32,000 nt of DNA, taken from positions 4,440,001 to 4,472,000 of the forward strand of contig NZ_CP021983.2 in NCBI RefSeq assembly GCF_002075285.3, written 5' to 3'. The number at the start of each line of letters is the position of its first letter. Position 1 is the first letter of the stretch. Below are positions 5,961-24,442 of the stretch, in pieces. The notes beneath the pieces are model-generated. The model searched no databases and was not told the DNA's origin. It saw only the letters and a program-made list of their open reading frames with translations. The position numbers and the translations under genes are program-made. Source of the DNA: Halomicronema hongdechloris C2206. Its GTDB lineage: Bacteria; Cyanobacteriota; Cyanobacteriia; Phormidesmidales; Phormidesmidaceae.

Positions 5961-6200
5961 TGCCTATAGACTCCTGCGTATTCAACCTCGGCAACTCAAG
6001 CACACCAAATACTTTTACTAGCTGAATCAGCCTACGACAATGCATTTAGCGTCTGGCCTCAAGCTGCAAACTCCTTCTATGATAAGCAGTCTCATTGCCT
6101 GTCTGAAAGGCCCTCACCACCGAACGACAATTCTACCCGAAGTCCTGACACGTCAAGCTGAGTCCCTAAGAACTTCGGGTAGATTGTAATGGTGACTCAG

Positions 6201-6273
6201 CGCGCCCTGGAGGACTCGAACCCCCGACATCGGGTTTTGGAGACCCGCGTTCTACCAACTGAACTAAGGACGC
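6201..6273 (-). tRNA. trnW: tRNA-Trp (anticodon CCA)
   Basis: The reverse complement folds by hand as a 73-nt cloverleaf. Acceptor GCGTCCT/AGGGCGC, D arm GTTC-AGTTGGTA-GAAC, anticodon arm CGGGT-CTCCAAA-ACCCG, T arm GGGGG-TTCGAGT-CCTCC, discriminator G. No CCA is encoded. Typical location upstream of secE. Confidence 0.9.
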
Positions 6274-12621: not shown

Positions 12622-13530
12622 CTACCCAGCGGTAGGTAAAAGGGTAAGCTGGCCCTGGTCACCATTGAGCTCTGCTGGCACACCCACTGGCAGGGCGGCG
12701 TTGACGCCATCATGGCCGAAGGGTAGATCGGAGACGACGGGAATGCCGAGATCGCCGATGCGATCGCACAGTACCTCAGCCACACTGAAGCTGGGTGTAT
12801 GCTCGGCGGGAAGACAGCGGCTAAAGCGCCCTAGGGCAATGCCACCAACTCGCTGGAGTTTGCCACTAGCCCGCCAATGGGTCAGCAGGCGGTCAATGCG
12901 ATAGGGAGCCTCAGTGACATCTTCTAAAGCCAGAATCACTCCGTCCAAATCAGGCTCATCGGCGGTACCTAACAGATGAGTAGCCACCGTCAAGTTGGCC
13001 GGAAGCAGTCGTCCCCGTGTTTTCCCTTGGTGCCAGCCCCGACCCTGTAAGGGGGCCACAGAACGGCCCTCGATCCAGTCAAATAGGCGCTGGCGCGACC
13101 ACTGCGGTTCCTGGGCCAGAGTAGTCAAGAGAGGTCCATGGACCCCGGCGATCCCCAGCTTGGCTAGACTCCACAACAGGCTGGTGATATCCGAAAAGCC
13201 AATCAGCCATTTGGGCTCGGTCGAAGGCCAACGCCACGCCTCCAGCAGGCGGGTGCCGCCAAAGCCGCCGCGGGCACAGAGGATGCCTCGACAATCCGGA
13301 TCCAGCCAGGCCTGCTGCAGTTGCTGGCGGCGAGCGGCATCATGGCCCGCCAGATACCCCCATTGGTGATCATAGCCAGGGCTCAGCTCTATGCGATAGC
13401 CCCGCCGCCGCCAGATATCTACCCCGGCCTGAAAAGCCTCCAACTCCCGTAAGGCACCACTGGGGGCAATTACCCGTAGACAATCCCCAGGTTGCAACGG
13501 CGGCGGTAACTGACAATCAGAACGGCGCAT
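12622..13530 (-). CDS. LD-carboxypeptidase (peptidase S66, LdcA-like)
   Basis: 302 aa. GFSDITSL provides the nucleophile Ser. Also has ARGGFGGTRLL and a C-terminal PFGHD His motif. Overall S66 architecture. Confidence 0.8.
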   Translation of the reverse strand: MRRSDCQLPPPLQPGDCLRVIAPSGALRELEAFQAGVDIWRRRGYRIELSPGYDHQWGYLAGHDAARRQQLQQAWLDPDCRGILCARGGFGGTRLLEAWRWPSTEPKWLIGFSDITSLLWSLAKLGIAGVHGPLLTTLAQEPQWSRQRLFDWIEGRSVAPLQGRGWHQGKTRGRLLPANLTVATHLLGTADEPDLDGVILALEDVTEAPYRIDRLLTHWRASGKLQRVGGIALGRFSRCLPAEHTPSFSVAEVLCDRIGDLGIPVVSDLPFGHDGVNAALPVGVPAELNGDQGQLTLLPTAG

Positions 13531-13933
13531 TGACAGGGCTACTCCTTAATCGGCCGTTCATTACTATACACACCGACCATTGAGACGGTTTTGGGACGCC
13601 TAGCGACGCTGCTCTCAGTAGTCTTAACTCAACAAGCCGGCGAGCTGCTAACCAGCAGTCATTCCAAGAAAGCAAGCATATTAGCCTGTTTCGCCAAGTT
13701 AGAGACGGGACTAGCCCTGGCTAGTCAGCCATTGGGCTACGGCAAACGCTCTGAAAGAGCACCCTAAGACCTAATTTGCAAAGGAATTCTTCAAAAGCTT
13801 GCAAGGCTAATAACAACCTTGAGGGAGCGTTTGCGGTGGTCCTAGAAGATTTGCCCTAACTGCTGTGTAGGCGTTTCGCAAATCACCCAAAGTAGCTCTT
13901 GATTCTCCATAAAAGTCTGGGCAGACTGGAGAG

Positions 13934-15040
13934 GTGCAACGGCTGTTCATCTGCTTAGAGGGGAGTCTCCTCGGCGACATCGTGTTACTCAAGACCTTCG
14001 ACATTGCTCCAGGGCAAGTTCAGACCTTCCTATGGGACGGAGGAGCGGAAGCATGGTCGCAGGTAATACTGGCTGAGGAAATTTGCTCAGCAAATCTACG
14101 GCTGGTGTTTCACAGCTGGCCCCAATTGTCCGAGCACGAGGGGATTATTCAGAGTGTGCTCCAGACCTTGGCAGAGGTTGTCTATAGACTCTGGCCCAGC
14201 TGGTATTGCCAGGACAACTTATTTGCCGATGATGCTACCACAGAAGCCGCCGTCCTCAACAGCTATCGCTGTCTAGACTGGCAGAGGCGTGAGGCTGGAG
14301 TATCGTTGCCATGGCTGAAAGCAGCCGTTCGAGCCCGACAGCAGGGCAAGGTGCCGCTTCTAGATCCATTTCCCCACTCTCTGCAGCTGGCTCAACTGGC
14401 CCTTGCCATTGACCCAGCCGGTATTGTTCTAGTCTTAGCCTTAGCGGAGCCCCGGCCTGCCGACCATCGTTTGTTGGCCTTAGCTAGGGCCGTCAATTGG
14501 ATAGCCATCCATTCACAGGCTCGTGTGGCCCTGTGGCTGCCTCAATCTCTAGCACAAGCGGCGGCGTTGGATTCGATCTTGTATGGCGCTAAGGTTCTGC
14601 CTTGCCCATTGACGGCGGCGGTTGCTACCGCTGAAGACGAAGCTAAACATGTGGTATTTCCCATCCACGGTAGACCGCATCCGTTTAGTCCAGGGGAGGA
14701 GAAATTGGCTCAATGGCTGGCTCGAGATAGGGAGTTAGGGCAGCTATTTAGCTTCAACCAGATGGTGAGGACGAAGAGGGGCCAGACCTATCTGGTAGAT
14801 TTGCTGTGGCTAGAGGGTCGGGTGATTGTTGAAGTGGATGGTTACCGCCACCACGGTAACCGGTTTGGGTTTAATCAGGATCGCCATCGTGACTATGACC
14901 TCCTGATCAGCGACTATGTGGTGCTGCGGCTGCCCCATGATGAGGTGCTCAACGATGTCGAAGTTGCGGTAGAAAAGATCCGCGACGTGGTGCGATTTCG
15001 TCGCCGACAGCTTTGTCATACCCGCGAGGTGTCTCTGTGA
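13934..15040 (+). CDS. Cassette gene A: unknown ~245-aa N-terminal domain fused to a C-terminal DUF559 / Vsr-like (restriction-endonuclease-fold) domain
   Basis: The C-terminal ~105 aa (nt ~14672-14989) read ...YLVDLLWLEGRVIVEVDGYRHHGNRFGFNQDRHRDYDLLISDYVVLRLPHDEVLNDVEVAVEKIRDV. This matches the D...E-V-D-G..H....D..RD....G..VLR pattern of DUF559. The start is uncertain: GGAG lies only 2 nt before the GTG at 13934. Its stop overlaps the start of the next gene. Confidence 0.75.
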   Translation: MQRLFICLEGSLLGDIVLLKTFDIAPGQVQTFLWDGGAEAWSQVILAEEICSANLRLVFHSWPQLSEHEGIIQSVLQTLAEVVYRLWPSWYCQDNLFADDATTEAAVLNSYRCLDWQRREAGVSLPWLKAAVRARQQGKVPLLDPFPHSLQLAQLALAIDPAGIVLVLALAEPRPADHRLLALARAVNWIAIHSQARVALWLPQSLAQAAALDSILYGAKVLPCPLTAAVATAEDEAKHVVFPIHGRPHPFSPGEEKLAQWLARDRELGQLFSFNQMVRTKRGQTYLVDLLWLEGRVIVEVDGYRHHGNRFGFNQDRHRDYDLLISDYVVLRLPHDEVLNDVEVAVEKIRDVVRFRRRQLCHTREVSL

Positions 15041-15696
15041 CTATTGAATTAACGCCCAAGCTGGATTTGGTGATTTGGAGTCTCCTAATCACAGGCGATG
15101 AACCGATGATGTCAAAGGTGAAGCCAGGCATAACGCCAACTGAGCGAAAAAAGCTGATTGATGCAGGTTTGATTCGATTGGAGAAACGAGGTCGAGCTTC
15201 TCATATTGTGCTAGAAGATAAAGCCTGGGATTGGCTGGCCACACGGTTGCAATCTCCAGACTTCACAGTCGAGTTCCCGAGTCGAGCTACGACTGCTATT
15301 CCCACATTTCAAGTCTTGCTAGGAAAAGTAGGGGAATTTTTGCGATCGCACAATATTTCCCTGGCTGAATTTCTCAACCCACCTCCTGAGTCCCACAAAC
15401 TGAATAATGATGATTTAGAGAAAGTTGCCGAAGTCGACTTAACAAAACATATACATGCTGCTTATACCAAGATTACAGGTGGTCAATACAGCGTTAGAGT
15501 GCGACTATCTGACCTACGACATAATCTATCTAATTTTTCTCGAGCTGAAGTTGACAGTGCATTGAGAAATATGGAGTTAGCTGGACATGTAGTCTTAATG
15601 CATTTAGACGATCCAGATGAAATCAAGCCAGAAGATGAGGCGGCAGCTGTCGATATTGATGGCCATAAAAGTCACATTTTATACTTAAAGGCTTAG
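15037..15696 (+). CDS. Cassette gene B: ~219-aa protein with two predicted winged-helix-like segments
   Basis: The GTG at 15037 overlaps the gene A stop as GTGA, with GAGG 7 nt upstream. The ORF is also open from the TTG at 15013. N-terminal part: LVIWSLLITGDEP..ITPTERKKLIDAGLIRLEKRGRASHIVLEDKAW. C-terminal part: VRLSDLRHNLSNFSRAEVDSALRNMELAGHVVLMHLDD. Both resemble wHTH recognition-helix plus wing segments, which is an inference. AT-rich. Confidence 0.7.
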   Translation: MTIELTPKLDLVIWSLLITGDEPMMSKVKPGITPTERKKLIDAGLIRLEKRGRASHIVLEDKAWDWLATRLQSPDFTVEFPSRATTAIPTFQVLLGKVGEFLRSHNISLAEFLNPPPESHKLNNDDLEKVAEVDLTKHIHAAYTKITGGQYSVRVRLSDLRHNLSNFSRAEVDSALRNMELAGHVVLMHLDDPDEIKPEDEAAAVDIDGHKSHILYLKA

Positions 15697-15707
15697 GATA
15701 TAGAACG

Positions 15708-18700
15708 GTGGAAAATTCGATTGCTTTTCAGGCTCTTCAATCTGTCGATTTTAACTGGACCATGCACATTAAAAGTGTATGGGAAGACATAATTGATGAT
15801 ATTGAGGGATTACACCAACAGGAACGCCACTTTATCGCCTCTGCCCTTGACCAACTCCTAAAGACATCTCAGCCGCTTGCGCCACTTGGCATTGTTATTG
15901 CAGGGGAGGGAGGTGTAGGTAAAACTCATCTCATTGGAGCAATTCGTAAATATACCATTACCCATGGGCTCAATTTTATTCTGGTCGATATGACTGATGT
16001 CCGTGACTTTTGGGAAACTGTTCTTCAGGGCTATATTAGTTCATTACAAGAAGATGCTGTTGATGGTACGGCCCAATTTCAACTAAGAGATTTAGTGGGT
16101 TATTTGGTTTCCCTGACAGGGAAATCGGTCTCTTCAGGTGTGATGGCTGCTCTGCCTGAGAAGTCTTTGAGAAATGCTATCAAGCACGTTTTGAATGCCC
16201 TAGCTCAAGTTGATCGGAAAGCTGCAGCCGAGTTCCAAGATGTCATCCGAGCCTTAATTTTGTTAAATTCTGATAGCTTTGAAATCTTGGGTATTGGTCA
16301 TACTTGGCTGCAGGGATTAGAAATCGAAACTGAGGATAAAACTCGATTTGGCTTCAGGCAAACTATTGCGACTAGTCCCAGGAAAATCGTACAGGGTTTG
16401 TCTTGGTTAATGAGTTTGCAGCGACCATCAGTATTGGCTCTCGATCAACTGGATTCTATCGTGATGCAACATCACTATGGAGCCGGTGGCTCTACAGATT
16501 TAGATCTATCAGAAGAACAACGTATCTCAAAAGCCATTATCGAAGGTATTGGCGGTGGATTAATGGCTCTACGTGATACCATCTATCGTACGCAAATAAT
16601 TGTTTCTTGTCTGGAATCAACCTGGAACGTTCTTGTAAATCAAGCTATTAGTACATTTCAAGATCGCTTTCATAGACCGCTCATCCTAGGACGAGTTATT
16701 AGTTCTGAAGTTGCTCGAGCCATTGTTGAAAAACGCCTTCAGCAGGCATATGAGCAGGTTGGTTTTGTTGCCCCCTACTCTACTTGGCCATTTTCCAAAT
16801 CATTTTTCCAATCTGCTATTCGTCATTCCCCGAGACGGATTTTAAAGCGTTGCTATGAGCATCAACAGCATTGCTTAGTGGCAGGAGAAATTCAGGAAAT
16901 TCATTCATTTGGTAACGACGTAGTCATAGATGATCCTCCTGTCGACCTCGAGGCAATTGATCAGGCATTCGCAACGGCTCAGCAACAGGTTGACATCAGG
17001 GCTGCCCTAGATGAGACCCAAGAAGATGCTGTGTTAGGGCAGTGGCTGCAAACCGCTGCAAAGTGCTTGGTTGCGGAGAACCCGACTCCAGATACGGTGG
17101 ACAGCGAGGTAGAGGTCAACTTTCCAGGCGGCAAAAATTATCCTCAACTTCACGCCAGGGTGAGGCTGATTTACCGCAACGAAGGGGACCGGGAGAAGCA
17201 TTTGTCCTTGAGGGCGCTGTTGCGATCGCATCATGCCGCCTACCGCGCCCGCCTGAAAACGGCCATGACCACGGCTGGTATCGACCATGCCCTGAGTTTT
17301 CGGCGGCTGCTCATTGTCAGAGTCGGTGATATTCCTGGTGGTGCAACTACTCAAGAATTGAGCCACCGATTTACTGAAGCAGGCGGCTTAATGGTCTATC
17401 CCGACGAGGCTGAATTGCGCCTCTTGGCAGCCCTGCATCAGATCAGGTCAATGGAACATTTTGATACCTGGCTGCATCAGCGTCGTCCAGTGTCACAACT
17501 GCGGTGCTTTCAATCCACCGTCACCTGGCTATTTGGCGATACCGTCGATGTATTCTCCTCTGGGAAAACGGTCTCTTCGGGGACGCTAGATTCCCCTCCT
17601 CAACCAGCACCTGACAAGCCAGATGAGTTGCCACTGAAATCGCCACATTCAGGAGATCACCCTGTCGCACCCTCGCCGGTTGGCCTGCCCATTGGCCGAC
17701 AGCTTAGACAGCCCCAAGACATCGTCGCGATTCCCCTAGAGGCCTTAACCAAACACATCGTCATCCTGGCCGGCAGCGGGGCGGGGAAAACCGTGCTGGT
17801 GCGTCGACTGGTGGAAGAAGCCATCCTGAAGCAGATCCCGGCCATTGTCATTGATGGGGCCAATGATCTGGCCCGCATGGGAGATCCATGGCCAGAAACA
17901 CCAGCGGCATGGGATCACCTCGACCGTCGCCAAGCCCAGCAGTACCATCAATCCGTCGATGTCGCCGTTTGGACCCCTGGCCGTGAAGCTGGCAATGCAG
18001 TCACCCTGAACCCGCTACCGGATTTTGCCGCCCTCACGAACAACGCCGATGAACTCAATCAGGCCATCGACATGGCCCGCGACAGTCTGCAAGATATCGT
18101 TGCCTCGGGCAATTCAGCCACGGCCAAGGTGCGGCGAGGCATTCTCAGAAATGCCCTAGAGGTGTTCGCAACTAACGGCGGCGGTGATCTTGAGGGCTTT
18201 GCCGACTTTTTAAGAGACCTCCCCGAGGATGCCGCCGGCAACATTTCTAGAGCCAGCCAACATGCCCAAGCCATGGCAGATTTACTCAGTGCAGAAATGG
18301 CCAACAATCCCCTCCTGCGTCAGAGTGGCGCCCCACTGGCCCCGGCCATTTTGCTAGGGCTAGAGGGTTCGTCTGCCAAAACTCGCCTCTCGATTCTCAA
18401 CTTTATTGGTCTGTCTGGACTGCCGCAGCAGCAGCAGTTCCTCCATCAACTGGCCATGACCCTATTTACCTGGATTAAGAAACACCCAGCCCCAGCAGGT
18501 CAACCCCTACGGGGGCTGCTGGTGATCGATGAGGCCAAGGACTTTTTACCGTCTCGGCAATCGACTCCCTGTAAATCCAGCCTGAATCGTCTCGCTGCCC
18601 AGGCTCGGAAATACGGGCTAGGGCTGATCTTTGCCACCCAAGCCCCCAAGAGTATTGACCATAATATTATCGCCAACTGCTCAACCCAGTTCTATGGGCG

Positions 18701-18923
18701 CAGCAATTCTCCAGCAGCGATCGATGTAGTGCGGGATCAACTCCAGCAACGCGGCGGCCAGGGGGACGATATTGCTCAACTGCAGCGAGGAGAGTTTTAT
18801 GCCGTTTCTGAATCAATCAATCCCCCGATTAAAATCACGGTGCCGCTGTGTTTGTCCTTCCATCCGCCCACTCCCTTAGATGAATCAGAGGTATTAGAGC
18901 GGGCCAAGCAATCTCGCCAATAA
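15708..18923 (+). CDS. Cassette gene C: 1071-aa double P-loop protein (N-terminal ORC/STAND-like NTPase plus C-terminal HerA/FtsK-like DUF87-type ATPase)
   Basis: The GTG start lies 11 nt after the gene B stop, with AGGA 9 nt upstream. Module 1 has Walker A GEGGVGKTH (aa 66-74, nt 15903-15929) and Walker B-like VLALDQLD (aa ~242-249). A Pro/Ser-rich linker spans aa ~620-665. Module 2 has Walker A ILAGSGAGKT (aa 686-695, nt ~17763-17792), IPAIVIDGANDL, Walker B LLVIDEAKDF (aa 937-946) and ARKYGLGLIFATQAPKSIDHNIIANCSTQFYGR. The last string is typical of HerA/VirB4/FtsK-clade ATPases. Confidence 0.85.
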   Translation: MENSIAFQALQSVDFNWTMHIKSVWEDIIDDIEGLHQQERHFIASALDQLLKTSQPLAPLGIVIAGEGGVGKTHLIGAIRKYTITHGLNFILVDMTDVRDFWETVLQGYISSLQEDAVDGTAQFQLRDLVGYLVSLTGKSVSSGVMAALPEKSLRNAIKHVLNALAQVDRKAAAEFQDVIRALILLNSDSFEILGIGHTWLQGLEIETEDKTRFGFRQTIATSPRKIVQGLSWLMSLQRPSVLALDQLDSIVMQHHYGAGGSTDLDLSEEQRISKAIIEGIGGGLMALRDTIYRTQIIVSCLESTWNVLVNQAISTFQDRFHRPLILGRVISSEVARAIVEKRLQQAYEQVGFVAPYSTWPFSKSFFQSAIRHSPRRILKRCYEHQQHCLVAGEIQEIHSFGNDVVIDDPPVDLEAIDQAFATAQQQVDIRAALDETQEDAVLGQWLQTAAKCLVAENPTPDTVDSEVEVNFPGGKNYPQLHARVRLIYRNEGDREKHLSLRALLRSHHAAYRARLKTAMTTAGIDHALSFRRLLIVRVGDIPGGATTQELSHRFTEAGGLMVYPDEAELRLLAALHQIRSMEHFDTWLHQRRPVSQLRCFQSTVTWLFGDTVDVFSSGKTVSSGTLDSPPQPAPDKPDELPLKSPHSGDHPVAPSPVGLPIGRQLRQPQDIVAIPLEALTKHIVILAGSGAGKTVLVRRLVEEAILKQIPAIVIDGANDLARMGDPWPETPAAWDHLDRRQAQQYHQSVDVAVWTPGREAGNAVTLNPLPDFAALTNNADELNQAIDMARDSLQDIVASGNSATAKVRRGILRNALEVFATNGGGDLEGFADFLRDLPEDAAGNISRASQHAQAMADLLSAEMANNPLLRQSGAPLAPAILLGLEGSSAKTRLSILNFIGLSGLPQQQQFLHQLAMTLFTWIKKHPAPAGQPLRGLLVIDEAKDFLPSRQSTPCKSSLNRLAAQARKYGLGLIFATQAPKSIDHNIIANCSTQFYGRSNSPAAIDVVRDQLQQRGGQGDDIAQLQRGEFYAVSESINPPIKITVPLCLSFHPPTPLDESEVLERAKQSRQ

Positions 18924-19065: not shown

Positions 19066-19740
19066 TTAGCCACCTGTTTGAATACTCAAATGCTGAGTAG
19101 CCGCCTGAGCAACGATCTCAGACTCATCCTGAGTCAGGCGCTCTAGGGCCGCCCGGGCCTCTGGAGCCGTGAAATGATGCAAGGCCGTGACCAGGCGATG
19201 GCGTACCTGCCAGTCGGCATCTTCTACGAAGGGCAATAGTAAAGGGATAGCGCGCTCATCCTGCAACTCGCCCAGGGAGCCAATGGCTGCGGTCTTCACC
19301 AATTCGTTGTCCGACCCCAGGGCCTCTCGCAGCAAATCAAAGGCCCTAGGGTCACCAAACTCTCCTAGGGCTGCAATAATGCTGAACTGGACTAGCCATT
19401 CTGAACTTTCATAATACTGGGCTTTCAAATCCTCAAACAGCCCCGATAATTTCAAGGCACCGATAGTGTCTGCCGCCGCCGCTTGAACGTCAGGTTCAGG
19501 ATCGCTCAGTAACGCCTGACGCAATAGCCCTAGCAAGCGGTTCCCATCTTGATGGCCCAGGCTAGCTAGTTGGCTAATGGCCGCGTAACGTACTCGATCA
19601 TTGCCGTCCTGGGCAGCTAACTGCACCATGTCAAAGGCGATGGCCGGGTCGAGCTGTCGTAATTGGTTAACGCCGCGGAGTCGCTCCCCAAAATCCTCAG
19701 ACTGCAAGAGCTGCCTGGCACTTTCCGGTGTGATGGACAT
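19066..19740 (-). CDS. HEAT-repeat protein (PBS-lyase HEAT-like repeats)
   Basis: 224 aa with repeated ...D.VR..A..aLg..gd..a...L motifs (DRVRYAAISQLASLG, PDVQAAAADTIGAL, WLVQFSIIAALGEFGD, ELVKTAAIGSLGEL, WQVRHRLVTAL). Confidence 0.8.
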   Translation of the reverse strand: MSITPESARQLLQSEDFGERLRGVNQLRQLDPAIAFDMVQLAAQDGNDRVRYAAISQLASLGHQDGNRLLGLLRQALLSDPEPDVQAAAADTIGALKLSGLFEDLKAQYYESSEWLVQFSIIAALGEFGDPRAFDLLREALGSDNELVKTAAIGSLGELQDERAIPLLLPFVEDADWQVRHRLVTALHHFTAPEARAALERLTQDESEIVAQAATQHLSIQTGG

Positions 19741-22138: not shown

Positions 22139-24442
22139 TTATGCCAGGGGCTGTTGTTGCCGCCAGCGCTGTAACGCTGGCACCACTGGACAGGGGGGTG
22201 CTTCTTGTAAAGCATCCGGTTTACTCCAGGTGAAGGGAGCCTGGCGGGCGGCTGACAGCCACAAAAAACGCTTGGCCCGGGTCATGGCGACGTAGAGTAG
22301 GCGATATTCTTCCGCGGTTTTCAGGGTCTGGGCCTGGTGCCAGGCGGCTATGGCATTGGGCATAGGCTGGGCGGCGGCGTCTCCGTGGGCATGGGCCCGG
22401 ATTTGAGCCCGGGCTACTTCGGCTAGGGTAAAGTCTCCTAGAAATTGGGCTTGGGGTGGCACCCAAAGCTCTCCTGGCAAGGTGCGCTGGTGCAGAAAGG
22501 GCAGAAATACGCCGTCCCAATCTAGGCCCTTGGCTTTGTGCATGGTAATCACGGTTAGCTGGCCCCGGCGGGTATAGAGATCGTCGGTATCTTCTGTCTC
22601 TACAGCTTCGAAGCGCTCGGTATCCACGATGTCTCGCAGGATCTGAATCAGGGTGTTTAAGCCCATGGCAGCCTGGGCCTGTTGGCCTAAGCGAGTCGCC
22701 AACTTGTCGGCGGTGGCCAGTTCACTCTGGTTGTAGCCGAGGCTGAGGCCGATGAAGGGCACCAGGTGGTAGGGGGGCAATTCAAATCGCGATCGCACCA
22801 AACTGACACAGAGGTGCTGAGCCTGGCGAGCCGCATCGGTGGTTCGCGGTGGGTCTAGGGGGGTCGGGTAGAGAAACTGTTCAGGGGCACTGGCTAGGGC
22901 GTCGAGATCTTGGCCGGGAATGCGGCGACGGTCTACCAATACCCGTAGGGCCGCCTTCAGGGTGTCGGCAGAATGGGGCCGCTGGATGAACTGCAGCAGG
23001 GTGAGCATCTCCCGGGGCACTTGGGTCTGGCGATCCTGTTCGCCCACGTCGTAGAGATGAATCCCAGTCGCGGCCAGGTCGGAACCATAGCACTGTCTGA
23101 GATGATGGCTGATAAATTGACCCTGGCGATATTCCCGCACCAGGATGGCCCAACTGTAAGTGTGGGGGGCCATCGTGCCTGCTAGGATCTGCTGGGCGAT
23201 GGCGGCTACCGTATCGTGAATGGTGTCTGGGGTCTGAATGGTAACCCCCTCACCCAGGGGAGCCGGGTTGGCATCGGGCTGAGGATCACCGCAGGGCACT
23301 GGTCGAATGGTTTGGGGCCGAAAGGGCAATGGCTGCATCGCCACGGTCTGGTTGACCCAGCCCAGTACGAAGTTGGCCGCTGCCATGATGATGGGGCTGC
23401 TGCGGCCGGCTTCATCCATGGTCACCAGGCGTCCTTGCCCCTGGCAGCGATCGCAAAATTGGTTGAAGTACACCGGGTCTGCCGGCGTGAAGGTGGAGTT
23501 GATGGCCTGGTTGGGATCGCCCACCCGGATTAGATTCAGGTTTTGATCTGGGTGTTGGGGAGCCGCGGCCAGTTGCTCTAGCAGTTGGGTCTGTAGCGGC
23601 GAGGAGTCTTGGGCCTCGTCCTCGAACACGGCAAATACCCGCGATTGCCAGAATCGTCGCGTCTCAGGGTCCGCCAGGGCGCGTAAGGCCGCCAGAATCA
23701 TGTCGTCGTAGTCGATGAAGCCCCGCTGCTGTAGGCCGTCTTGATACTGCTGGTAAAGCCCTGCCGCCAGGGTGAGCACCGGATAGTCGGTACCACCGTC
23801 AGTATCGATGCGATGGAGACTGGTCGCTAACTCGGCCAGGACCTCTGGCAGCAGACCCGAGCTTTTGGCTTCTCGGATGGCGGTATGGGCTAGCGTCGGC
23901 AGGACGTCGGTGCGCAACACCGATTGCCGCCGCAGCCGCTCGGTTTCTTCGCCGTCGAATTGACGGCCTTCGATCAAGTGCTGATATAACTCGGGATGAT
24001 GGGTGATCCAACGCTCTACGCTTTGACGCATCAACCGATGGCTCTGGCTGGGGGAGACTAGGGTCAGGGTCTCTAGGTTGAGGTTGGAGAGTTCTGGGTT
24101 GCGGCTGGCGATGGTCAGGGCTAAGCCATGTAGGGTATAGGTGACGAAGCTGGTTTGGGGCAGGGATAGCTGCTGCAGATGCGATCGCACCTTGGCCTTC
24201 AGATTCGCCGCTGCCGAGCGGGTGAACGTAACTAATATCAACTGGCGGCGACCATGGAGTCGCTGCTGAGCAATGGTAAAGGCTGCCGCCGCCGCCATAC
24301 CGGTAGATTTTCCCGACCCTGGCACCGCCGAGACCGCCAAGGGACCTCCGGTCCAATCGGCCATGGCTTGTTGACCATGGCGCAGACCACGGTATAGCTC
24401 CTGCAGCACGGCAGGGCGATCGAGGGAAGGACTGCTGACCAC
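22139..24442 (-). CDS. UvrD/REP-family (SF1) DNA helicase
   Basis: 767 aa. Walker A AVPGSGKST, motif II FEDEAQDS, VGDPNQAI, and C-terminal TMHKAKGLDWDGVFL and YVAMTRAK motifs. GTG start with GAGGAG upstream. Confidence 0.85.
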   Translation of the reverse strand: MVSSPSLDRPAVLQELYRGLRHGQQAMADWTGGPLAVSAVPGSGKSTGMAAAAAFTIAQQRLHGRRQLILVTFTRSAAANLKAKVRSHLQQLSLPQTSFVTYTLHGLALTIASRNPELSNLNLETLTLVSPSQSHRLMRQSVERWITHHPELYQHLIEGRQFDGEETERLRRQSVLRTDVLPTLAHTAIREAKSSGLLPEVLAELATSLHRIDTDGGTDYPVLTLAAGLYQQYQDGLQQRGFIDYDDMILAALRALADPETRRFWQSRVFAVFEDEAQDSSPLQTQLLEQLAAAPQHPDQNLNLIRVGDPNQAINSTFTPADPVYFNQFCDRCQGQGRLVTMDEAGRSSPIIMAAANFVLGWVNQTVAMQPLPFRPQTIRPVPCGDPQPDANPAPLGEGVTIQTPDTIHDTVAAIAQQILAGTMAPHTYSWAILVREYRQGQFISHHLRQCYGSDLAATGIHLYDVGEQDRQTQVPREMLTLLQFIQRPHSADTLKAALRVLVDRRRIPGQDLDALASAPEQFLYPTPLDPPRTTDAARQAQHLCVSLVRSRFELPPYHLVPFIGLSLGYNQSELATADKLATRLGQQAQAAMGLNTLIQILRDIVDTERFEAVETEDTDDLYTRRGQLTVITMHKAKGLDWDGVFLPFLHQRTLPGELWVPPQAQFLGDFTLAEVARAQIRAHAHGDAAAQPMPNAIAAWHQAQTLKTAEEYRLLYVAMTRAKRFLWLSAARQAPFTWSKPDALQEAPPCPVVPALQRWRQQQPLA

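Follow-up and report, generated by a model that had tools for sequence, protein, structure and literature searches.

A three-gene nuclease-NTPase cassette of Halomicronema hongdechloris with an exchangeable winged-helix/AAA+ module, a probable anti-invader system of the HerA/FtsK capture type

The closest described counterparts of the cassette analyzed here are the "HerA/FtsK capture systems" proposed in silico by Rakesh, Aravind & Krishnan (NAR 2024, PMC10853773) and restated in PMC12839542, which combine an Orc/CDC6 AAA+ module, a REase, a HerA/FtsK ATPase and a wHTH, distributed over one or several polypeptides and located in mobile, phyletically patchy neighbourhoods. These systems often carry a rapidly evolving multi-wHTH protein, and their defining inactive REase separates the AAA+ core from the wHTH belonging to it (PMC10853773). 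In the proposed logic, localisation is assigned to the AAA+ and wHTH components, DNA pumping to HerA and cleavage to the REase; the class as a whole is a computational prediction (PMC10853773), and no experimental test of this class or of the present cassette family was found in the literature.

HerA-clade ATPases are likewise encoded beside an effector enzyme in the SIR2-HerA and DUF4297-HerA anti-phage systems which, together with nuclease-NTPase defence operons generally, provide precedent for a defence reading. The stand-alone counter-invader system DndFGH/DptFGH also resembles the cassette in its constituents, with a REase nuclease, a HerA/FtsK-type ATPase in DndH and DndG as the recognition protein with multiple wHTHs, while HerA-NurA of archaea and some bacteria couples a hexameric HerA-clade motor to a nuclease.

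In the current work, the window (the whole stretch of 32,000 nucleotides of H. hongdechloris DNA that was analyzed) contains at positions 13934-18923 three tightly coupled plus-strand genes, here named A, B and C. Gene A (13934..15040, + strand; 368 aa from a GTG start, with homologues beginning to align at about residue 17-24) is read as the effector nuclease. Gene B (15037..15696, + strand), read as an adaptor with two winged-helix domains, encodes 219 aa from a GTG start in agreement with the NCBI annotation, an alternative longer TTG start at 15013 being also open. Gene C (15708..18923, + strand; 1071 aa, GTG start) specifies the double-ATPase core protein and is a 100% match to an H. hongdechloris "ATP-binding protein". 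The A stop and B start overlap as GTGA at 15037-15040, B and C are separated by an 11-nt spacer with AGGA inside, and the neighbouring genes, an S66 LD-carboxypeptidase on the left (12622-13530) and a HEAT-repeat gene on the right (19066-19740), are on the minus strand. An earlier note on this DNA had described the three coupled ORFs, the GTGA overlap, the 11-nt spacer and the minus-strand flanks, all of which are real, and its proposal of a single operon encoding a DUF559 protein (A), two winged helices (B) and a P-loop plus HerA protein (C) is borne out: A, B and C form a single operon. As also noted previously, no tRNA, integrase, transposase or methyltransferase adjoins the cassette in the window, the sole tRNA of which is a Trp tRNA at 6200-6273. 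The cassette lies amid housekeeping genes at a site identical to that in a sister genome and is thus stably inherited there.

Homologues of gene C amount to 1,171 50%-identity cluster representatives at E<=1e-30, the best 150 of which are nearly all full length. Its N-terminal AAA+ module (aa 1-~417; 15708..16958, + strand) has an intact Walker A (K72), an insert of ~140 aa that separates strand 2 from Walker B, and a Walker B of the form D246-Q247-x-D249; K72 and Q247 are retained in 44/44 complete loci and D246 in 43/44. The module is matched by AAA_22, AAA_16, AAA, IstB, DnaA and Hda/DnaC-type profiles and aligns to Msp1 and ClpB/ClpC, with its "DQLDS" opposite the "DQIDS" of a deposited Msp1 chain; some homologues match PF10923 (BrxC/BrxD), and weak profile matches suggest an assignment to the Orc/CDC6 clade. 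The D-Q Walker B, present throughout, corresponds in nature to that of a hydrolysis-dead trap mutant, and since an invariant Gln replaces the catalytic Glu, the module is probably an ATP-binding switch rather than a working ATPase. The "sensor-like NTPase" suggested for this region in the earlier note keeps its Walker A, and the NTPase part of that label is doubtful.

The conserved middle domain of C (aa ~418-620; 16959..17567, + strand) gave no Pfam or PDB sequence match and no profile similarity to A; E439, H482, R484, R486, E496, H498 and R515 are invariant in its alignments, and it is possibly the inactive REase plus wHTH of Orc/CDC6-HerA systems. It is followed by a Pro-rich, poorly conserved linker (aa ~621-665; 17568..17702, + strand), recognized from the translation and from unconserved alignment columns, and then by the HerA/FtsK-clade ATPase (aa ~666-1071; 17703..18920, + strand). 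The latter has canonical Walker A and B motifs, with K694, D941, E942, R967 and Q978 in all 44 complete loci, and gives the anticipated DUF87/HerA match (3.5e-9) as well as matches to PADLOC HerA models (1e-10 to 1e-15), NCBIfam HerA_antiphage (1e-10) and the anti-phage and archaeal HerA chains 8xau, 4d2i and 8wiv in PDB (6e-11 to 1e-8). No HAS-barrel was detected in C.

Gene A has 308 homologues, nearly all annotated as DUF559, and its AlphaFold2 model has a pLDDT of 85.9. Residues 272-353 match DUF559 (PF04480) at 8.3e-10, as had been predicted, and lie within a C-terminal Vsr/DUF559-type PD-(D/E)xK endonuclease domain (aa ~241-368; 14654..15037, + strand), the fold of which matches 3r3p, the Vsr-like I-Bth0305I catalytic domain (Foldseek, probability 1.0, TMt 0.77). 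This domain shares both fold and D...ExDG..H motif with the Vsr/DUF559/I-Bth0305I endonucleases; in contrast to stand-alone DUF559 proteins of ~110-300 aa, it is preceded by an N-domain of 240 aa that is specific to the family, and it is operonic with B and C. D289, E300, H307, D316, D320 and R332 are found in 44/44 complete loci and D302 in 43/44, so the residues that had been singled out for mutation (E300 and D302 in A, K72 and K694 in C) are invariant or nearly so, the catalytic residues of the Vsr fold are retained, and the nuclease is predicted to be active. The N-terminal alpha/beta domain of A (aa ~24-240; 14003..14653, + strand) shows the lowest conservation anywhere in the cassette (mean pairwise identity 0.28); it has no Pfam match and no profile similarity to the AAA+ module of C, and the glycine-rich loop after strand 1, and with it any Walker A, is absent in every homologue. 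Weak Foldseek matches to Cdc6/ORC, TnsC, RdrA and ABC ATPases (E 0.01-0.1, probability 0.6-0.87) tentatively point to a degenerate P-loop/AAA+-like fold, the similarity being marginal.

Gene B was without match in Pfam, PADLOC, NCBIfam or PHROG. Its model (pLDDT 88, dropping below 50 at residues 119-129) consists of two winged-helix folds connected through a helical stretch and a disordered linker, and the winged helices match ArsR/MarR/F-93/AspA-like structures with a probability of ~1.0.

When the cassette is compared to its sister locus (L083), a low-GC variable module becomes apparent at 15400..16960 (+ strand), comprising the C-terminal wHTH of B (aa ~121-219), the 11-nt spacer and the AAA+ module of C (aa 1-~417). 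Its GC content is 0.42 as against 0.55-0.59 in the remaining cassette and flanks, and its DNA identity to the sister locus, 0.84-0.95 in the sequence adjoining it on both sides, falls mostly to 0.40-0.68; the edges are sharp (15400-15440 and ~16960) and coincide with domain boundaries, namely the disordered linker of B and the end of the AAA+ module. At the protein level, identity is 0.34 for B 119-219 and 0.45-0.52 for C 1-430 (33-52% over the unit) as compared to 0.87-0.95 for the remainder, and dS within the module is saturated. The same allele type with the same low GC occurs in Nodosilinea (L001), a second mosaic pair is formed by L003 and L024, and the C-terminal domain of B correlates least with the other cassette regions (Spearman 0.23-0.45). 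The B C-terminal domain and the AAA+ module of C are therefore a unit that is exchanged by recombination. Relative to the sister genome, dN/dS is 0.1-0.2 for the cassette (0.21 for gene A), and dS of the cassette core (0.22-0.31) is ~3-fold lower than that of the chromosomal flanks (0.68-1.03), which at an unchanged site indicates recent replacement by homologous recombination.

The trio is syntenic, with its gene order kept in dozens of genomes, in at least eight phyla (Cyanobacteriota, Chloroflexota, Planctomycetota, Myxococcota, Desulfobacterota, Acidobacteriota, Verrucomicrobiota, Pseudomonadota and Actinomycetota), a recurrence far beyond chance. In 71/72 loci B immediately precedes C, and in 59/69 A precedes B, which confirms that the genes move as a unit; no recurrent fourth gene was seen among the loci compared. 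A as an obligate partner is not upheld: it is missing from 10/69 loci, with no substitute nuclease found nearby and B-C kept without the nuclease in 14% of loci, so that the core function may be able to do without the nuclease. Cassette flanks vary between genera and contain no conjugation, phage or integrase genes, and identity across phyla can exceed that within a phylum (Caldilineaceae 53% versus Synechococcus 45%). The distribution is patchy and the phylogeny incongruent; the cassette is horizontally mobile. One locus adjoins a VWA-PP2C-kinase triad, and in Tsukamurella the trio shares an island with a VapBC pair.

No system model of PADLOC or NCBIfam covers the trio. The earlier claim that the combination is undescribed nevertheless has to be withdrawn, since the description of the capture class (PMC10853773) has the same components and logic as A, B and C and the general type was thus already predicted computationally in 2024; the cassette fits this class by its published description. 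DUF559/Vsr as the nuclease has 0 occurrences in PMC10853773, which likewise makes no mention of a degenerate P-loop-like nuclease N-domain, an invariant D-Q motif in Walker B or blockwise swapping of the B C-terminal domain together with AAA+; the invariant D-Q motif, the swappable "sensor" segment and the ~3-fold lower core dS are new. The HerAs of SIR2-HerA and DUF4297-HerA provide the best PDB sequence matches of C (8xau, 8wiv, 9c1m, 8ziq) and its best NCBIfam and PADLOC HerA matches. However, the anti-phage HerA match spans only C 895-1052, from Walker B to the C-terminus (E 1e-7 to 1e-11), C scores 41 bits against an NCBIfam anti-phage HerA cut-off of 850, a 660-aa AAA+ plus uncharacterised region occupies the HAS-barrel position, a DUF559 nuclease takes the place of SIR2 or Cap4-like DUF4297 as effector, and there is an additional wHTH adaptor gene. 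As regards DndFGH/DptFGH, PADLOC DndH matches are negligible (E 0.03-0.07), B matches no Dnd/Dpt model, a DndF-like protein is absent, a gene of its own encodes the nuclease, and AAA+ is fused N-terminal to HerA. An assignment to MADS, an 8-gene operon with methyltransferase, specificity subunit and kinase, was rejected: C 670-1045 matches PADLOC mad8 at 1.8e-26 (profile positions 15-299 of 314), but the MADS HMMs were built from HHpred/PDB alignments, so that mad8 in effect recognises HerA/FtsK ATPases in general, and the other seven components are absent at the cassette.

The cassette is probably an anti-invader (phage or plasmid) DNA-targeting nuclease-NTPase system of the "Orc/CDC6 AAA+ - HerA/FtsK capture" type, and the nuclease plus HerA-type motor proposed earlier is still the best reading. 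For this system we infer an oligomeric state, DNA translocation, binding partners, a sensed cue, self/non-self discrimination and a defence phenotype as follows. C would assemble into a ring via its catalytically competent HerA/FtsK ATPase, and this ring would translocate or "capture" double-stranded DNA, with the AAA+ module, binding ATP with little or no hydrolysis, serving as a nucleotide-dependent switch or loading module. AAA+ and the C-terminal winged helix of B would form a recognition unit that selects the DNA or cue engaging the machine, is connected to the conserved core by the N-terminal winged helix of B, and is diversified by recombination through blockwise swapping among cassettes. 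The Vsr/DUF559 endonuclease of A, docked by its degenerate P-loop-like N-domain, would cut the DNA delivered by the motor. Counted in favour of a defence role were the operon coupling and cross-phylum synteny, the invariant nuclease core and HerA Walker motifs together with the low dN/dS, the accessory and mobile character of the cassette, the precedents named above and the arms-race-like modular diversification of the B C-terminal domain and AAA+; a weak defence-island signal, the lack of a linked modification gene, the loci without A, the stable inheritance in the window, the weak profile matches behind the Orc/CDC6 assignment and the marginal P-loop similarity of the A N-domain were counted against it. 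The expected defence-island context is indeed weak: among 150 neighbouring ORFs a handful match defence models while most are housekeeping or regulatory, and neither a methyltransferase nor any other evident mark of self versus non-self was found among the neighbouring genes.

A rival reading, in which the cassette is an accessory machine resembling HerA-NurA that serves repair or recombination of the host chromosome, with the motor feeding ends to the nuclease and an AAA+/wHTH loader acting at damaged or stalled DNA, is unlikely. A HerA-clade ATPase and a nuclease do share one operon, archaeal HerA is among the matches of C (4d2i at 8e-9; NF040937, NF040819), and the Vsr nuclease family includes a bona fide repair enzyme; mutS lies 2.6 kb away in the window, a UvrD-type helicase gene is near the syntenic sister locus, and the mostly housekeeping flanks and the lack of a linked modification gene would suit such a role. 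However, proximity to mutS is not kept in other genera, neither NurA nor Mre11/Rad50 partners occur among the 150 neighbouring ORFs, and the nuclease type, the missing HAS-barrel and the extra AAA+ module and wHTH adaptor all differ from HerA-NurA. The patchy distribution, incongruent phylogeny and genus-variable contexts resemble those of a mobile accessory element, as does the setting in Tsukamurella, where the trio and a VapBC pair form an island between rplN and rpsQ, inside a ribosomal-protein operon, and a block-swapped hypervariable recognition module is unexpected for generic recognition of DNA damage.

The VapBC pair adjoining the cassette in Tsukamurella would instead favour a selfish or addiction element acting by homing-like cleavage and gene conversion, or by post-segregational killing, with host benefit secondary. 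In structure the nuclease comes closest to the catalytic domain of a homing endonuclease, there is a weak PADLOC "HEase" match in addition, and the recent replacement implied by the low core dS speaks for the same reading. Exchange of a defence locus between strains would, however, lower dS just as well, intein, intron, integrase and transposase features and terminal repeats were not found at the cassette, B-C occurs without the nuclease in part of the loci, and three genes over 5 kb with two ATPase modules are far more elaborate than known homing elements; this explanation is accordingly considered quite improbable.

A conjugative, plasmid-partition or DNA-uptake role, with C as a TraD/VirD4/FtsK-type coupling protein or DNA pump, is very improbable and effectively refuted by context, given that the weak matches to TraD, TrwB, VirB4, TraC, FtsK and CedB/CedD are far below family cut-offs and confined to the P-loop, C has an AAA+ module in place of an apparent transmembrane N-terminus, no relaxase, T4SS, pilus or partition genes occur among the 150 neighbours or within +-10 kb of 80 loci, and matches were absent from phage and IMG/VR collections and in PLSDB restricted to two megareplicons and one apparently chromosomal record.

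The cassette consists of three plus-strand ORFs located exactly where the earlier note had placed them, these being gene A (13934-15040, 368 aa), specifying a nuclease, gene B (15037-15696, 219 aa counted from its GTG; XM38_042360 in strain C2206), specifying an adaptor with two winged helices, and gene C (15708-18923, 1071 aa from a GTG start; 100% match to an H. hongdechloris protein), specifying a double ATPase. As that note had also described, the flanking genes are on the minus strand (an S66 LD-carboxypeptidase gene on one side and a HEAT-repeat gene on the other), the stop codon of A overlaps the start codon of B as GTGA at 15037-15040, and B and C are separated by 11 nt. An AGGA in this spacer precedes the GTG of C. 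The reading of the three genes as a single operon in that note and its domain calls for the three proteins were judged to be right. No integrase, transposase or methyltransferase gene is present near the cassette, again in agreement, and the search of the window for tRNA and Rfam features retrieved a tRNA-Trp (6200-6273) alone. Promoter and terminator scans gave background level only.

The NCBI start of C is Met19, generating a product of 1053 aa. Since F15 and W17, located 5' of this start, are invariant in the C family, the GTG at 15708 represents the better start. B and C of H. hongdechloris are both present at 100% identity in a collection of 5.8 billion proteins, whereas no identical protein was retrieved for A (top match 91%); the H. 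hongdechloris record may lack an annotation for gene A or list it as a pseudogene, though the ORF and all motifs of A are intact. Upstream of A, approximately 370 nt (roughly 13480-13890) have no counterpart in the otherwise collinear locus of a sister genome (L083, a JGI metagenome contig), and an imperfect inverted repeat of 18 nt (13734-13751 / 13825-13842) is present in the intergenic region (13531-13933).

The distribution of the cassette was determined by a scan of one genome per species, which returned at least 147 confirmed relatives of C, the best 80 loci being analyzed. These 80 are distributed over Cyanobacteriota, Chloroflexota, Planctomycetota, Myxococcota, Desulfobacterota, Acidobacteriota, Verrucomicrobiota and Pseudomonadota; a Tsukamurella record with the full trio adds Actinomycetota, and a Nonomuraea record contains a full-length C match. 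B is directly upstream of C in 71 of the 72 loci with enough upstream DNA, the remaining one having a B-like ORF by BLASTP, and A immediately precedes B in 59 of 69. The trio, whose co-occurrence elsewhere was a point on which the earlier proposal could have failed, is thus syntenic, and A, B and C form a unit. A fourth conserved gene was sought by all-against-all clustering of 1,198 ORFs from the 80 loci (±10 kb) and rejected, as generic families only (SDR, kinases, ABC ATPases) were obtained. An exhaustive profile search with C returned 1,171 representatives of 50%-identity clusters at E≤1e-30, and nearly all of the top 150 are full length (1,030-1,170 aa), indicating a stable architecture and a large family. 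At some loci C is broken into two ORFs (e.g. L073, 9998-13230, 607 and 486 aa) or N-terminally truncated (see also L076 and L064); frameshifts, pseudogenization or assembly errors may explain these cases, which suggest occasional decay of the cassette.

A is missing from 10 of 69 loci (14%), which are phylogenetically scattered. No substitute effector was recognized in these, their neighbours being unrelated to one another (a VWA/PP2C/kinase triad in one; ROCO, WD40, P450, Band7 and other proteins elsewhere). Given this scatter and the lack of a substitute nuclease nearby, B-C represents the invariant core, which A often accompanies while being dispensable or relocatable. In the first of these cases (L012, 6673-9740), the VWA, PP2C phosphatase and Ser/Thr kinase genes are tightly packed or overlapping directly downstream of a cyanobacterial B-C pair, in a composition resembling the TerY-P defence triad.

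Residues 272-353 of A match DUF559 (PF04480; 8.3e-10, 38.9 bits versus a cut-off of 20.6), the family anticipated for this C-terminus. In an AlphaFold2 model built on 39 homologues (pLDDT 85.9), the C-terminal domain and the Vsr-like catalytic domain of the homing endonuclease I-Bth0305I superpose (3r3p; probability 1.0, TMt 0.77). The catalytic residues, the lack of which would have spoken against a nuclease, are present: D289, E300-x-D302-G and H307, together with D316, R317, D320 and R332, show no or almost no variation in 44 complete loci, and A is therefore predicted to be an active nuclease. The preceding part of A (~24-240) is a beta-alpha-beta domain without a match in a Pfam search, for which Foldseek gave weak matches to Cdc6/ORC, TnsC, RdrA and ABC ATPases (E 0.01-0.1, probability 0.6-0.87), and a Walker A motif is absent from it in every homologue. 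It is tentatively regarded as a degenerate P-loop-like docking domain; homology to the AAA+ module of C was rejected, as hhalign detected no profile similarity.

B has no match in Pfam, PADLOC, NCBIfam or PHROGs. Its model (pLDDT 88) comprises an N-terminal winged helix (~7-60), a long helical segment, a disordered linker (residues 119-129, pLDDT <50) and a C-terminal winged helix (~126-217), both ends matching wHTH proteins of the ArsR/MarR/F-93/AspA type (probability ~1.0, ~75 residues).

For residues 40-400 of C, matches to AAA_22 (1.7e-8), AAA_16 (7.5e-8) and AAA, together with weak ones to DnaA, IstB, Hda and DnaC, clearly predict an AAA+/STAND-like P-loop module; PF10923 (BrxC/BrxD) is matched in some homologues, and the top PDB profile matches are classical-clade AAA proteins, although weak (E~0.005). 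The Walker A motif is intact (GxxGxGKTH, K72), and a ~140-residue insert separates strand 2 ('FILVDMTD') from the Walker B motif, which reads D246-Q247-x-D249 and aligns in the PDB profile search with 'IDQIDS' of a deposited Msp1/ATAD1 chain. The canonical Walker B sequence of AAA proteins is DE(I/L)D, and Gln at the Glu position is the classical engineered, hydrolysis-dead 'trap' mutation. As Q247 is present in 44 of 44 complete loci and D246 in 43, the module is expected, on the basis of its sequence, to be a natural Walker-B Gln 'trap' which would bind ATP and hydrolyse it poorly or not at all.

The middle part of C (~418-620) is conserved, with invariant E439, H482, R484, R486, E496, H498 and R515, and gave no sequence match in Pfam (single sequence and 12 members) or in the PDB profile search; a relationship to the nuclease of A was rejected by hhalign profile comparison. 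A Pro-rich linker connects it to a HerA/FtsK-clade ATPase (~666-1071), found where DUF87/HerA had been expected (DUF87 3.5e-9; PADLOC mad8 1.8e-26; PADLOC HerA models 1e-10 to 1e-15; NCBIfam anti-phage HerA 1e-10). The nearest PDB sequences to this domain are HerAs of anti-phage systems and archaeal HerA, K694, D941-E942, R967 and Q978 are invariant (44 complete loci), and no HAS-barrel was detected in C. In one C-family member of 1,500 aa (P0085) the C-like part ends at ~1090 and is followed by a ~400-aa C-terminal extension, which could be an alternative fused effector.

The cassette is not uniform in its history. GC content dips to ~0.42 over 15000-17000, compared with 0.55-0.60 elsewhere in the window. 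In L083 gene order is the same (MutS, rhomboid, S66, A-B-C, HEAT, CBS, M42), and DNA identity to the window is 0.78-0.92 in the flanks, 0.88-0.95 over A and the 5' half of B, mostly 0.40-0.68 from ~15400 to ~16960, and 0.84-0.95 over the remainder of C. At the protein level, identity is 0.88/0.95 for A, 0.95 for B 1-118, 0.33-0.34 for B 119-219, 0.45-0.52 for C 1-430, 0.87 for C 431-665 and 0.92 for C 666-1071. The left breakpoint is located in the disordered linker of B and the right one at the end of the AAA+ module. Three ages are distinguished by dS: 0.68-1.03 in the flanks, 0.22-0.31 in the conserved parts of the cassette (dN/dS 0.10-0.21), and saturation in the central block (dN 0.46-0.60). 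The lower dS of the cassette core compared to the flanks indicates that the core was exchanged between lineages more recently than the chromosomes diverged, and the central block represents a different allele of much greater age.

This allele is not confined to the window, as Nodosilinea sp. P-1105 carries the same type, with an AAA+ region which is 65-68% identical to that of the window and 34-53% to that of L083, and with the same GC content of 0.42 within a gene of 0.58. The C-terminal winged-helix part of B in the window is likewise closer to Sphaerothrix (0.61 identity) than to the sister genome (0.33). Another pair of loci (L003 and L024) shows the same pattern (0.39 for the B C-terminal part and 0.53 for AAA+, versus 0.74-0.84 elsewhere), and across 44 loci the lowest correlations with all other regions are those of the B C-terminal part (Spearman 0.23-0.45). 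In the simplest interpretation, this part of B and the AAA+ module of C work together and are exchanged as one block, with A, the N-terminal part of B, and the middle and HerA parts of C as a constant engine. It can be put as a testable statement that B bridges the constant and the variable half. From the mosaic, contacts would be predicted between the B C-terminal part and the AAA+ module, and between the middle/HerA part of C and the B N-terminal part, A or both. A more specific version is offered only tentatively, and we would sooner doubt it than rely on it: the B C-terminal part and the presumably hydrolysis-dead AAA+ module would be a portable, recombination-swapped specificity cartridge of low GC content across genera, re-targeting a constant HerA-motor/Vsr-nuclease engine to different invader cues. 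If true, this would be a HerA-based immune system with cassette-style sensor switching, in a logic similar to hsdS domain shuffling in Type I restriction, and a ready-made natural experiment for mapping what capture systems sense. Allele pairs differing only in the variable half exist, such as H. hongdechloris and the JGI sister genome, and are suited to swaps.

The cassette is accessory and mobile. Its flanking genes vary by genus, and among the best 80 loci C proteins of Caldilineaceae are 53% identical to that of the window, compared with 45% for some of Synechococcus. In Tsukamurella tyrosinosolvens (L082, NZ_LR134464.1, 'plasmid 22'), the trio, with overlapping stop and start codons, is part of a ~9-kb island (L082 2489-11527) between rplN and rpsQ, which are normally adjacent in the ribosomal-protein operon; besides the trio (DUF559/hypothetical/DUF87), the island contains a VapBC pair, a DEAD/DEAH helicase gene, a BTAD fragment and two hypothetical genes. 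As this 224-kb 'plasmid' carries the main ribosomal-protein operon, it is probably a mislabelled chromosomal fragment. In PLSDB the cassette is present on two megareplicons and this apparently chromosomal record and nowhere else, and searches of phage genomes and IMG/VR did not retrieve it. Of 150 neighbouring ORFs scanned with PADLOC and Pfam, most were housekeeping or regulatory genes, and defence-model matches were scattered, which speaks neither for nor against enrichment; a classic defence-island signal is weak.

In line with the earlier note, which could assign the combination to no named system, PADLOC v2 and NCBIfam (June 2026) contain no system or equivalog model for A, B or C. The combination itself, considered undescribed in that note, does not stand as such, since the three proteins map well onto a predicted class combining an Orc/CDC6-type AAA+ with HerA/FtsK, described by Rakesh, Aravind & Krishnan in 2024 as 'HerA/FtsK capture systems' (PMC10853773) and restated in the 2026 BREX paper (PMC12839542). 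Four features of this class are found in the cassette: an active endonuclease of the REase superfamily, as predicted for A 241-368 (DUF559, which may be one of the 'two distinct families' of the paper, with a Vsr-like fold); a HerA/FtsK ATPase domain (C 666-1071); a wHTH or a rapidly evolving multi-wHTH protein, corresponding to B with its two wHTH folds, of which the C-terminal one is only 33-34% identical between sister genomes that share 87-95% in the other cassette parts; and mobile, phyletically patchy neighbourhoods, seen here as many phyla, variable flanks, the Tsukamurella island and a cassette dS below that of the flanks. The AAA+ module of C is a candidate for the Orc/CDC6 type, its matches being to general AAA families, weakly to DnaA-like ones, and to classical-clade AAA proteins. 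Capture systems also contain a REase domain which is inactive and lies between the AAA+ core and a C-terminal wHTH (PMC10853773); C 418-620 is conserved and in the right position for it, with no Pfam or PDB sequence match. Sequence relatedness of B to DndG/SspB was not detected with the PADLOC models. The most fitting place for the cassette is within this kind, known from computational prediction, as a new member or at most one newly characterised; the literature searched contained no experimental work on the capture class and no mention of DUF559 together with DUF87.

Other systems containing related parts differ from the cassette. SIR2-HerA and DUF4297-HerA have a full-length HerA (HAS-barrel and ATPase) scoring at cut-off and an adjacent SIR2 or DUF4297 effector, whereas C reaches only 38-41 bits against NCBIfam HerA_antiphage (cut-offs 800-850) with C 936-1048 alone matched, PADLOC HerA models match only its C-terminal ~100-130 residues, A is a DUF559 protein, and neither effector is matched in A, B or C. 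Membership of MADS, an 8-gene methyltransferase-based operon (methyltransferase, specificity subunit, kinase and other mad genes), was rejected, as only mad8 matches and no other mad component is in the operon or recurrent in the flanks; because the MADS HMMs derive from HHpred/PDB alignments and the operon is methyltransferase-based with eight genes, the mad8 match does not make the cassette MADS. DndFGH is defined by DndF, DndG and DndH homologues, whereas DndH is matched here at E 0.03-0.07 over ~45 residues and DndF and DndG not at all. NurA, the nuclease partner of HerA, and Mre11/Rad50, which usually accompany it, are absent from A, B and C and not recurrent in the flanks. At the domain level A shares with Vsr/DUF559 endonucleases their fold, the PF04480 match and the catalytic residues (D / ExD / H). 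The cassette falls within the experimentally supported broad category of nuclease-NTPase defence operons, matching none of the 16 systems of the study on these.

Regarding function, an anti-invader role is favoured as reasonably likely. The HerA/FtsK domain of C would assemble into a ring for pumping or capturing dsDNA, the AAA+ module, predicted to bind ATP but to be impaired in hydrolysis, and the variable wHTH of B would be a recognition and loading switch, which B would bridge to the constant part, and the Vsr-type nuclease A would cut the captured DNA. No modification enzyme is linked to the cassette; self DNA might be spared if, as proposed for the class, the structures recognized are intermediates of replication, packaging or transfer, or abortive infection might operate. 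An accessory function in repair or recombination is considered unlikely: a gene for a UvrD-type helicase (22139-24442, minus strand) is located ~3 kb downstream of the cassette and mutS ~2.6 kb upstream, and the helicase gene also occurs in L083 (14646-16934, PF00580), yet this proximity is common to the two sister genomes and not seen in other genera, and is therefore probably coincidental. That the cassette is a selfish or addiction-type element is slightly less probable again, as att sites or flanking repeats around it were found at nothing beyond chance. A transfer or partition role is highly improbable, C scoring 11-21 bits against conjugative coupling proteins and T4SS ATPases (TraD, VirD4, VirB4; cut-offs 366-643) and no transfer, conjugation or partition genes accompanying the cassette in its neighbourhoods, which removes the coupling-protein alternative that the earlier note had named as one that would refute its idea.

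Capture systems with an Orc/CDC6-type AAA+ partner have so far been predicted only computationally, and the current results turn a generic prediction into specific, testable statements. The additions made here are how broad and uniform the family is, a Walker B that is invariably D-Q, the (tentatively) degenerate P-loop-like domain at the N-terminus of the nuclease, the lack of a nuclease in 14% of loci, and the recombination-exchanged block of B C-terminal part and AAA+ with its own GC signature and three-tier dS. The cassette is not a new category, but it is compact and abundant, with over a thousand 50%-identity clusters of C, and has clear experimental handles; with three genes in ~5 kb, a uniform architecture and clean catalytic residues for mutation, it is a good entry point. 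If it is a defence system, it would add one of the nuclease-NTPase type that cyanobacteria, planctomycetes and myxobacteria commonly carry; these groups are poorly covered by screens centred on E. coli and Bacillus.

Apart from the cassette, the 5' end of the window contains a 394-aa ORF (23-1207, possibly running off the end) encoding an AAA_21/AAA_15 (AbiEii/OLD-type ABC) ATPase, overlapped by a 164-aa ORF (1165-1659) with no Pfam match. GC content over 23-1659 is 0.41-0.45, compared with 0.55-0.60 elsewhere, and this region, adjoining rplJ, rplA, nusG and tRNA-Trp, may represent another two-gene ATPase module, separate from the cassette and acquired by horizontal transfer.
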